The notes under the pieces: generated by a model
What the model was told of the DNA's origin: nothing
The model's input: only the letters and a program-made list of their open reading frames with translations
Database searches by the model: none
Part shown: in pieces, positions 5,450 through 8,892 of the stretch
Layout: the number at the start of each line of letters is the position of its first letter
Numbering within the stretch: position 1 is the first letter of the stretch
Made by a program: the position numbers and the translations under genes
Source of the DNA: Leucoraja erinacea
Lineage: Eukaryota
Length of the DNA: 63,771 nucleotides
Direction: 5' to 3'
Assembly (NCBI RefSeq): GCF_028641065.1
Contig: NW_026576141.1
Span: 62,001-125,771, forward strand

Positions 5450-5759
5450 GCTGTGGTCTGATGTGTTTCCACAGCCCTGGTTGTCTCCAGCAATGACACA
5501 GAGGGAACGGTCTCTGGAGAAACCCTGCCGACCCAAGACGCACTTGTTCTTCCTGAAGACACACAAGACAGCCAGTAGCACCGTGCTTAACATCATGTAC
5601 CGTTTTGGTGAGGCAAGGAACTTAACCTTTGCCCTGCCGGTTGCCTACCAGTTTGGCTATCCCCAACTCTTTGATACAAGAACAGTGAAATCATACAACG
5701 CAAAGAATAATCAGGAATACCATATCATTTGCAACCACATGAGGTTCTACAAGCCACAG
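5450..5759 (+). CDS. GAL3ST4: Galactose-3-O-sulfotransferase exon with the 5'-PAPS-binding motif
   Basis: tccag|...|gtatgt; encodes CRPKTHLFFLKTHKTASSTVLNIMYRFG...ICNHMRF, typical of the GAL3ST family. Paralog assigned mainly by synteny with TRAPPC14-LAMTOR4. Confidence 0.88.
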
Positions 5760-5775
5760 GTATGTAAGGCAAGCC

Positions 5776-8700
5776 AGTGCTACTGCTGTCGGGGAGGATT
5801 TAAACTAATGTGGCAGGGGGATGGGTACAAGAGCAGAGGGGCAGGGGGGTGTAAAATGAAGGTAGAAGCAATAGGTAGCAAGGTGAAAAGTAAAAGTGGC
5901 AGGCAGACAAAACCAGGGCAAAAATCAAAAAGGGCCACTTTTCAACATAATTGTATAAGGGGTAAGAGCGTTGTAAAAACAAGCCTGAAGGCTTTGTGTC
6001 TCAATGCAAGGAGTATTCGTAATAAGGTGGATGAGTTGAACTTGCAGATAGCCATTAATGATTATGATATAGTTGGGATCACGGAGACATGGCTCCAGGG
6101 TGACCAAGGCTGGGAGCTGAACATCCCGGGATATTCAATATTCAGGAGGGATAGAGAGAAAGGAAAAGGAGGTGGGGTAGTGTTGCTGGTTAGAGAGGAG
6201 ATTAACGCAATGGAAAGGAAGGACATTAGTTTGGAGGATGTGGAATCGGTATGGGTAGAGCTGCGAAACAATAAGGGGCAGAAAACGCTGGTGGGTGTTG
6301 TGTACAGGCCACCTAACAGTAGTAGTGAAGTTGGGGATGGCATCAAACAGGAAATTAGAAATGCTTGCGACAAAGGCAAAGCAGTTATAATGGGTGACTT
6401 CAATCTACATATAGATTGGGTGAATCAAACTGGCAGGGGTGCTGAGGAAGAGGATTTCTTGGAATGTATACGGGATAGTTATCTAAACCAACATGTAGAG
6501 GAACCAACGAGAGAGCTGGCTATTTTAGACTGGGTATTGAGTAATGAGGAAGGGTTAGTTAGTAGTCTTGTTGTGCGTGGCCCCTTGGGCAAGAGTGACC
6601 ATAATATGGTTGAGTTCTTCATTAGGATGGAGAGTGACATTGTTAATTCAGAAACAATGGTTTTGAACTTAAAGAAAGGTAACTTTGAGGGTATGAGACG
6701 TGAATTGGCCAAGATTGACTGGCAATTAATTCTAAAAGGGTTGACGGTGGATATGCAATGGAAGGCATTTAAAGACTGCATGGATGAACTACAAAAATTG
6801 TTCATCCCAGTTTGGCAAAAGAATAAATCAGGGAAGGTAGTGCATCCATGGATAACAAGGGAAATCAGGGATAGTATCAAAGCAAAGGATGATGCGTACA
6901 AACTAGCCAGAAAAAGCAGCATACCGGAGGACTGGGAGAAATTCAGAGACCAGCAGAGGAGGACGAAGGGCTTAATTAGAAAAGGAAAAATGGATTATGA
7001 AAGAAAACTGGCAGTGAACATAAAATCTGACTGCAAAAGTTTTTATAGATATGTGAAAAGAAAGAGATTAGTTAAAACAAATGTAGGTCCCTTGCAGTCA
7101 GAAACAGGTGAGTTGATCATGGGGAACAAGGATATGGCGGACCAATTGAATAACTACTTTGGTTCCATCTTCACTAAGGAAGACATAAATGATCTGCCGG
7201 AAATAGCAGGGGCCCGCGGGTCAAAGGAGGTGGAGGAATTGAGTGAAATCCAGGTTAGTCGGGAAGTGGTGTTGGGTAAATTGAATGGATTAAAGGCCGA
7301 TAAATCCCCAGGGTCAGATAGGCTGCATCCCAGAGTACTTAAGGAAGTAGCTCCAGAAATAGTGGATGCATTAGTAATAATCTTTCAAAACTCCTTAGAT
7401 TCTGGAGTAGTTCCAGAGGATTGGCGGGTAGCAAACGTAACCCCACTTTTTAAGAAGGGAGGGAGAGAGAAAACGGGGAATTACAGACCAGTTAGCCTAA
7501 CATCGGTAGTGGGGAAACTGCTAGAGTCAGTTATTAAAGATGGGATAGCAGCACATTTAGAAAGTGGTGAAATCATTGGACAAAGTCAGCATGGATTTAC
7601 GAAAGGTAAATCATGTCTGACGAATCTTATAGAATTTTTCGAGGATGTAACTAGTAGCGTGGATAGGGGAGAACCAGTGGATGTGGTGTATCTGGACTTC
7701 CAGAAGGCTTTCGACAAGGTCCCACATAAGAGATTAGTATACAAACTTAAAGCACATGGCATTGGGGGTTCAGTATTGATGTGGATAGAGAACTGGCTGG
7801 CAAACAGGAAGCAAAGAGTAGGAGTAAACGGTTCCTTTTCACAATGGCAGGCAGTGACTAGTGGGGTACCGCAAGGCTCAGTACTGGGACCCCAGCTATT
7901 TACAATATATATTAATGATCTGGATGAGGGAATTGAAGGCAATATCTCCAAGTTTGCGGATGACACTAAGCTGGGGGGCAGTGTTAGGTGTGAGGAGGAT
8001 GCTAGGAGACTGCATGGTGACTTGGATAGGCTGGGTGAGTGGGCAAATGTTTGGCAGATGCAGTTTAATGTGGATAAATGTGAGGTTATCCATTTTGGTG
8101 GCAAAAACGGGAAAGCAGATTATTATCTAAACGGTGGCCGATTGGGAAAGGGGGAGATGCAGCGAGACCTGGGTGTCATGGTACACCAGTCATTGAAGGT
8201 AGGCATGCAGGTGCAGCAGGCAGTAAAGAAAGCGAATGGCATGTTGGCTTTCATAGCAAGAGGATTTGAGTATAGGAGCAGGGAGGTTCTACTGCAGTTG
8301 TATAGGGTCTTGGTGAGACCACACCTGGAGTATTGCGTGCAGTTTTGGTCTCCAAATCTGAGGAAGGACATTATTGCCATAGAGGGAGTGCAGAGAAGGT
8401 TCACCAGACTGATTCCTGGGATGTCAGGACTGTCTTATGAAGAAAGACTGGATAGACTTGGTTTATACTCTCTAGAGTTTAGGAGATTGAGAGGGGATCT
8501 TATAGAAACTTGCAAAATTCTTAAGGGGTTGGACAGGCTAGATGCAGGAAGATTGTTTCCGATGTTGGGGAAGTCCAGGACAAGGGGTCACAGCTTAAGG
8601 ATAAGGGGGAAATCCTTTAAAACCGAGATGAGGAGAACTTTTTTCACACAGAGAGTGGTGAATCTCTGGAACTCTCTGCCACAGCGGGTAGTTGAGGCCA

Positions 8701-8892
8701 GTTCATTGGCTATATTTAAGAGGGAGTTAGATGTGGCCCTTATGGCCAAGGGGATCAGAGGGTATGGAGAAAAGGCAGGTACGGGATACTGAGTTGGATG
8801 ATCAGCCATGATCATATTAAATGGCGGTGCAGGCTCGAAGGGCCGAATGGCCTACTCCTGCACCTAATTTCTATGTTTCTATGTTTCTATGA
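5776..8892 (+). mobile_element. CR1-clade LINE, 5'-truncated at the end of ORF1, with uninterrupted ORF2 (APE endonuclease + RT) and (TTTCTATG)n tail
   Basis: LCLNARSIRNK, GITETW, GDFN and SDH endonuclease motifs; NYRPVSLTS, YLDFQKAFDKV, GVPQGSVLGP and KFADD RT motifs; stop at 8792; 8-bp tail repeat. Confidence 0.95.

Follow-up and report, generated by a model that had tools for sequence, protein, structure and literature searches.

The open frame that joins a sulfotransferase exon of the little skate Leucoraja erinacea to a LINE is best explained by a young, 5'-truncated CR1 copy that lies in the last intron of the gene, in frame by chance, and is most probably removed with that intron during splicing, as a neutral passenger; we give this reading a probability of about 0.85. 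The window, i.e., the whole stretch of DNA analysed, comprises 63,771 nucleotides (contig NW_026576141.1, positions 62,001 to 125,771). Its (+) strand holds a stop-to-stop open reading frame (ORF) of 1158 codons at 5316..8792, which links a GAL3ST2-like exon, across the splice donor at 5759/5760, to an entire CR1 ORF2, with Pfam matches to Gal-3-0_sulfotr (residues 66-151, profile positions 58-143 of 402), Exo_endo_phos (235-429) and RVT_1 (716-930). The ORF call and these domains confirmed the claim of the first-pass annotation that no stop intervenes between the GAL3ST exon and the end of the endonuclease (EN) and reverse transcriptase (RT) frame at 8792. The donor (CAG/GTATGT at 5759/5760) and the acceptor (11203/11204) are both canonical in sequence.

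Host sulfotransferase gene

The homology model of the host gene contains four coding exons on the (+) strand (ATG 287/end 291; 3399-3470; 5450-5759; 11204-11992) and encodes 391 aa without an internal stop. The putative exon 1 (287..291), a start codon and exon end reading ATG AG/GT, gives an N-terminus that aligns in register with that of P0125, the Rhinoraja orthologue. Exon 2 (3399..3470), bounded by AG/GT sites, carries the signal-anchor segment (hydrophobic residues about 10-32) and has homologues in the anchor exons of P0125 and a paralogue on contig C1106. Exon 3 (5450..5759) matches profile positions 58-143 of PF06990, is identical to the database protein P0002 over the shared part and contains KTHKTASST, which we take to be the 5'-PSB motif. 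Exon 4, the last (11204..11992), encodes 262 aa and accounts for roughly two thirds of the domain (profile 140-401), and its protein is identical (100%) to P0002, a little skate protein that its source names galactose-3-O-sulfotransferase 2-like. The PF06990 domain across exons 3-4, the open frame and the N-terminal anchor were therefore all found in a model of which exon 1 is the inferred part. The Kyte-Doolittle maximum of exon 2 is 1.63 (19-mer) as compared to 1.93-2.51 in relatives, i.e., the anchor is weaker, and residues 10-32 give the only hydrophobic 19-mer above 1.6 in a read-through chimera. The public P0002 model reads exon 2 in another frame (MRWTHT...) and thereby loses the signal anchor; homology with P0125 speaks for ATG 287 together with the acceptor at 3398/3399. 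An anchor exon lacking a start codon was considered as well and dropped, since this ATG and acceptor fit the orthologue. Exon 3 is joined to exon 4 in P0002 and in the models of relatives, all of which are predictions, and the Logan proteins P0001 and P0124 start within intron sequence and contain no spliced junction. A repeat lies at 5340-5380, just upstream of exon 3.

The exon-3 DNA is single-copy in the genome, and the protein search returned only five paralogous exons (46-76%). The closer paralogue (G000:C1106:67,800-75,900, L037 and L038; 77% in exon 3, 63% in exon 4) has the same exon layout and no LINE behind its donor. About 21 kb upstream is another GAL3ST paralogue, in head-to-head orientation (G000:C960:42,600-46,200, L041; G000:C896:15,200-19,100, L044), within a region assembled twice at 95-98% identity; close to the beginning of its last exon the C960 copy carries a frameshift that is absent from the C896 copy, either a haplotype difference or an assembly error. 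C896 duplicates the upstream region and stops before the sulfotransferase gene, so it provides no second allele.

Elsewhere in the window, an ORF at 20992-21525 (+) begins MESRCEYLMYFP, presumably resembles the N-terminus of TRAPPC14/C7orf43 and is followed by a 2-kb tandem array. Two small exons at 46496-47047 (-) encode a hydrophobic protein, which had no Pfam match at E 0.001 and which we assume to resemble TMEM272. A five-kb satellite at 52900-57950 contains almost no T on its (+) strand, with an AT skew of 0.997 at 54-56 kb, and is adjoined by a short, non-repetitive, coding-like segment at 52690-52900 (-).

Structure of the CR1 copy

The LINE is a 5'-truncated CR1 copy of 3114 nt at 5778..8891 (+). 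Its start is placed at 5778 because the sibling matches begin at 5775-5778 (39 of the 40 scored, at 99-100%), and 20 siblings are 0.42-1.51% apart from it. Between the donor and the LINE lies the start of the host intron (5760..5777, +), i.e., 18 nt that begin with the GTATGT donor and read as six stop-free codons (VCKASQ), which is present in the related organisms B and D and unmatched by LINE siblings. The LINE had been placed about 15 nt behind the donor; it does lie close behind it, at a distance of 18 nt. Its geometry and sense orientation were supported, as was its truncation near the end of ORF1 with loss of its own 5' end. What remains of ORF1 is the last 9 codons and the stop (5779..5808, +), of an ORF that is of the esterase type in longer siblings. 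The ORF1 stop overlaps the in-frame ATG of ORF2 in TAATG (5806-5810), and ORF2 (5808..8792, +) encodes 994 aa with an APE endonuclease and an RT, the motifs GDFN, SDH and FADD being present. The 3' UTR (8793..8891, +) ends in (TTTCTATG)x3 at 8868-8891, the same tail as in siblings, and TG occurs at both LINE junctions, as a 2-nt microhomology or duplication. The sense strand of the LINE is 62% purine, and poly(A) hexamers are located at 6822 and 9582 (AATAAA) and at 7289, 7533 and 8816 (ATTAAA). The same intron contains an older CR1 3' fragment in the same sense (10549..10999, +), 94.5% identical in sequence. More CR1 fragments at 43356-44012 (-, 94%) and 51137-52147 (-, 80%) point to several waves of the family.

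In run X1, a single contig spans 5348-5800 and crosses the exon-LINE junction with zero differences; X1 may be the source DNA and not independent. As far as this one contig goes, the possibility that the junction is an assembly artefact is largely removed. It shows no second allele at the junction, so the insertion may be homozygous or fixed, with the same reservation about the origin of X1. In X5, a second sample from that organism, no contig covers the exon.

The CR1 family and the chance of an in-frame landing

The search with 5740-6200 returned 2286 candidates, and the close agreement of the best 40 scored places the copy in a very young, high-copy family with thousands of near-identical copies. 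Among the 20 siblings followed to the tail, ORF2 is open over the full 1004 codons in 7 and, with an in-frame deletion, in one more; 16 of these 20 were chosen from 29, mostly because they had no indel early on, the other 13, which did have indels, being set aside. In all, ORF2 is open in at least 8 of 33 long siblings, all of them preselected as best matches, and some of the breaks may be assembly errors. Upstream of the cut point, 21 of 29 siblings also have the ORF2 frame open for a further 43-44 codons. The open stretch across the end of ORF1 is thus a family trait, also found in full-length siblings, and the intact ORF2 reflects the youth of the copy. ORF2 is open at the skate locus because the copy is young and the frame over the end of ORF1 is kept open in the family; since the stretch from the junction to the endonuclease is open family-wide, no more than six host codons had to be free of stops. 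The TAATG overlap, with the ORF2 frame open for about 53 codons upstream of the ATG, is itself a feature of the family (5806-5810; siblings L003-L030), whose ORF2 could be fed by reinitiation or frameshift.

CR1 elements have a short repeat as their 3' tail. Here the (TTTCTATG)n tail was found by motif search in the skate copy and 19 of 20 siblings, Exo_endo_phos and RVT_1 scored above cut-off in ORF2, and ORF1 matched Lipase_GDSL_2 (an SGNH esterase) with 43.5 and 48.4 bits (cut-off 32.9) in both siblings scanned. The element therefore has the canonical CR1 features: an APE and RT ORF2, an esterase ORF1 and a short-repeat tail. The vertebrate CR1 is described in the cited text as having an esterase ORF1 and an APE and RT ORF2, without poly-A (PMC13343379). 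The skate family shares with that description the APE/RVT ORF2, the esterase ORF1 (in longer siblings), the absence of a poly-A tail and the mostly 5'-truncated copies; there is no substantive difference from it, only the chance in-frame landing 18 nt behind a donor.

How often such a landing should occur was estimated in two ways. For a sense copy this close to the donor, the combined probability of frame, six stop-free codons and an open ORF2 is about 0.1. A rough genome-wide model, with an assumed 150-250 thousand introns, 500-2286 long copies, 20-27% of them cut in the open stretch and 20-40% open, gives 0.015-0.30 in-frame cases per genome for the CR1 family alone. In the sibling set, 9 of 30 lack family sequence 129 nt upstream. 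The arrangement is uncommon (0.015 per genome at the low end), but selection is not required to explain it, all the more as many genomes were scanned. The prior of one in three earlier assigned to an in-frame fusion makes the open frame look less commonplace than it is, since the intact ORF2 and the frame open across the ORF1 end are both family traits.

Absence from related organisms

The insertion is missing from the related organisms B and D: the contigs of both leave the window sequence at the junction. A 490-nt contig of organism B (run X3) agrees with the window over 5345-5779 and then departs from it for 55 letters; a 478-nt contig of organism D (run X10) agrees over 5352-5776 and departs for 54, and the depth at 5788-5800 is 0 in both runs. 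The exons of B and D differ from the window by 3.2% and 4.5% of the listed sites, and about half of the changed codons among those sites are synonymous (5 of 10 and 7 of 13, respectively). The two contigs are likely, not proven, to be orthologous, and such contigs show presence better than absence; three near-identical Amblyraja proteins indicate that a relative may hold tandem copies of the sulfotransferase gene.

The 55 letters would correspond to about 25-28 unique letters plus 30 within a repeat that starts at 8916-8920. Judged from these match lengths, the empty site would join 5779 to 8892 and run into that repeat. If so, the pre-insertion allele probably read TGA at 5778-5780, which would have been the first in-frame stop of the intron.

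Private changes, selection and offspring

Nine sites of the copy differ from most siblings. They were at first all taken as private, which is wrong for 8685 and 8742, since these two define a subfamily in which 8676-8749 occurs in 90 exact copies. This leaves seven changes private to the copy over its 3114 nt (0.22%), six of them non-synonymous and one synonymous. This 6:1 ratio has a probability of 0.28-0.51 under neutrality, 0.21 with omega 0.5, 0.022 with omega 0.2 and 0.0016 with omega 0.1, although seven changes give little power and some of them may be assembly errors. Strong constraint on the LINE frame (omega of 0.2 or less) is thus disfavoured and weak constraint (omega 0.5) is compatible; purifying selection on the frame of the element was not found in these seven changes. 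The chance that seven substitutions introduce no stop is 0.70.

All 89 other copies of the 90-copy subfamily were fetched and aligned. The private state at 8512 occurred in none of the 71 copies covering that site, and the private states at 8015, 7832, 7167 and 6042 in none of 36, 33, 16 and 8, respectively. Single-site matches were seen at 7314 (1/22) and 7128 (1/17), both without the other private states. One other match to the 6042 state was considered as a daughter and rejected, being an older copy, 4-5% diverged, with its own ORF1. Sequence of host exon 2 or exon 3 was found in none of the 89. Four of the 89 reach 500-1130 nt into ORF1 upstream of 5778, and the source of the subfamily is therefore a longer element elsewhere; the skate copy is a daughter and not a source. 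The proposal that this copy gives rise to new copies or to retroposed host exons finds no support in these counts (8512 in 0/71, host exon in 0/89) or in the single-copy exon DNA.

Discussion

The probable history of the locus begins with target-primed reverse transcription that would have ended 30 nt before reaching the start of ORF2, with TG common to both junctions. The insertion would have interrupted the probable first in-frame stop (TGA) of the intron, and the intact GT donor and AG acceptor would still yield the 391-aa Golgi sulfotransferase. GAL3ST2 has a type II topology. It uses PAPS in the Golgi lumen, as the cited text describes (PMC9971977). Any read-through product would measure 1139 aa with the four-exon model, which bears out the size of about 1,140 aa given earlier. 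It would comprise 86 of the 402 sulfotransferase profile positions, and with about two thirds of the domain missing it would be a catalytically dead anchor. From the N-terminal anchor and the Golgi-lumen topology of GAL3ST2, its EN/RT is predicted to lie in the lumen, away from RNA substrate and DNA. Six sequons are present in the LINE part. The same predicted placement argues against the suggestion that the chimera could supply RT.

Some leakage at the donor is unlikely. In this case the 3.1-kb, purine-rich sense LINE 18 nt away would weaken splicing or supply a poly(A) site, giving a minor read-through RNA, a non-functional membrane-anchored chimera of 1139 aa or less and a partly impaired host gene. 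The open frame, the 62% purine content and the several poly(A) hexamers are all compatible with it. The RNA with the retained intron may also survive, since this is the last intron and no exon junction lies behind the stop. At low SAFB, as in testis, sense LINEs are described as gene traps (PMC10901741). Against this stand the donor, which is near consensus (CAG/GTATGT), the host frame, which is intact in all four exons, and the older sense CR1 fragment already tolerated in the same intron. The three RNA runs examined of ten listed (X17, X21 and X24, of which about 5, 6 and 25% were read) contain 0 reads on 5388-5767 and thus no supporting read, the gene being unexpressed there; the reads crossing 5778 in X17 (5) and X21 (27) lead into ORF1-type sequence that belongs to other copies.

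A more consequential form of read-through, namely a host-LINE fusion at birth, seems to us distinctly improbable. With the first in-frame stop of the intron erased, the donor would be read through in some tissue, testis being the obvious candidate, and would give either a 1139-aa Golgi-anchored protein with a whole endonuclease-RT or a host-promoter RNA that translates ORF2. This would be a species-specific, unselected precursor of the p97Bcnt kind, RT included.

We consider incipient domestication very improbable. It would require regulated read-through, with the chimera, or an ORF2 restarted at TAATG on host-promoter RNA, being functional or supplying RT. The whole ORF2 with its catalytic motifs, the native TAATG start and the precedents p97Bcnt and Lyosin would fit, but two related organisms lack the insertion, six of the seven private changes are non-synonymous, neither daughter copies nor a retroposed host exon were seen, the fused form is predicted to be lumenal and two thirds of the sulfotransferase domain are missing. 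The absence from B and D and the private divergence of 0.22%, mostly non-synonymous, thus count against the locus as the domestication candidate it had been proposed to be. A mis-joining of the LINE to the exon during assembly is hardly credible: the window is on a small unplaced contig beside a region also assembled twice (C896), but one X1 contig spans 5348-5800 without differences, the tail is clean, both ends show the 2-nt junction homology and the copy has its own private changes.

The ruminant host protein p97Bcnt contains the endonuclease domain of an RTE-1 LINE (PMC4613681; PMC12129022). The skate locus resembles it in that host exons are in frame with LINE ORF2 sequence within a duplicated gene family (PMC4613681). 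As described in those sources, p97Bcnt is an expressed brain protein of ancestral-ruminant age with the endonuclease part, whereas the skate locus has the whole EN and RT, is confined to one lineage, would be joined via donor read-through and is predicted to be lumenal. Lyosin and the L1 ORF1p fusion isoforms are similar in that intronic LINE coding sequence is a potential alternative exon, but these fusions are reported to derive from ORF1, to be ancient and expressed, and for the most part to evolve under purifying selection (dN/dS 0.3-0.5), and the same 2025 paper states that conserved ORF2 fusions remain to be elucidated (PMC12129022). CSB-PGBD3 likewise involves an intronic element with an ORF in frame with upstream host exons and a possible 3' terminal exon; it is described as a DNA transposase with its own splice acceptor and an abundant protein that has stayed conserved over 43 Myr or more, and none of these holds for the skate locus (PMC2268245). 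The TAATG at 5806-5810 recalls the UAAUG stop-start coupling of SART1, which as described requires a ribosome that finishes ORF1, whereas a skate read-through RNA would enter ORF2 directly from the host frame (PMC3894237). The true fusions p97Bcnt, Lyosin and CSB-PGBD3 are, by these accounts, old, expressed and conserved; at the skate locus neither sharing across species nor purifying selection was found, and the copy is not a source. Searches of the literature for CR1 ORF2 host fusions yielded nothing on the skate locus.

As a passenger, the insertion matters little and may serve as a species or population marker. It also shows cleanly how in-frame 'pre-fusions' arise by chance from a LINE family that is active. 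If read-through were true, the locus would offer a rare natural view of LINE ORF2 recruitment at its first step, and a simple place to learn how well a strong donor withstands a sense LINE at a distance of 18 nt.
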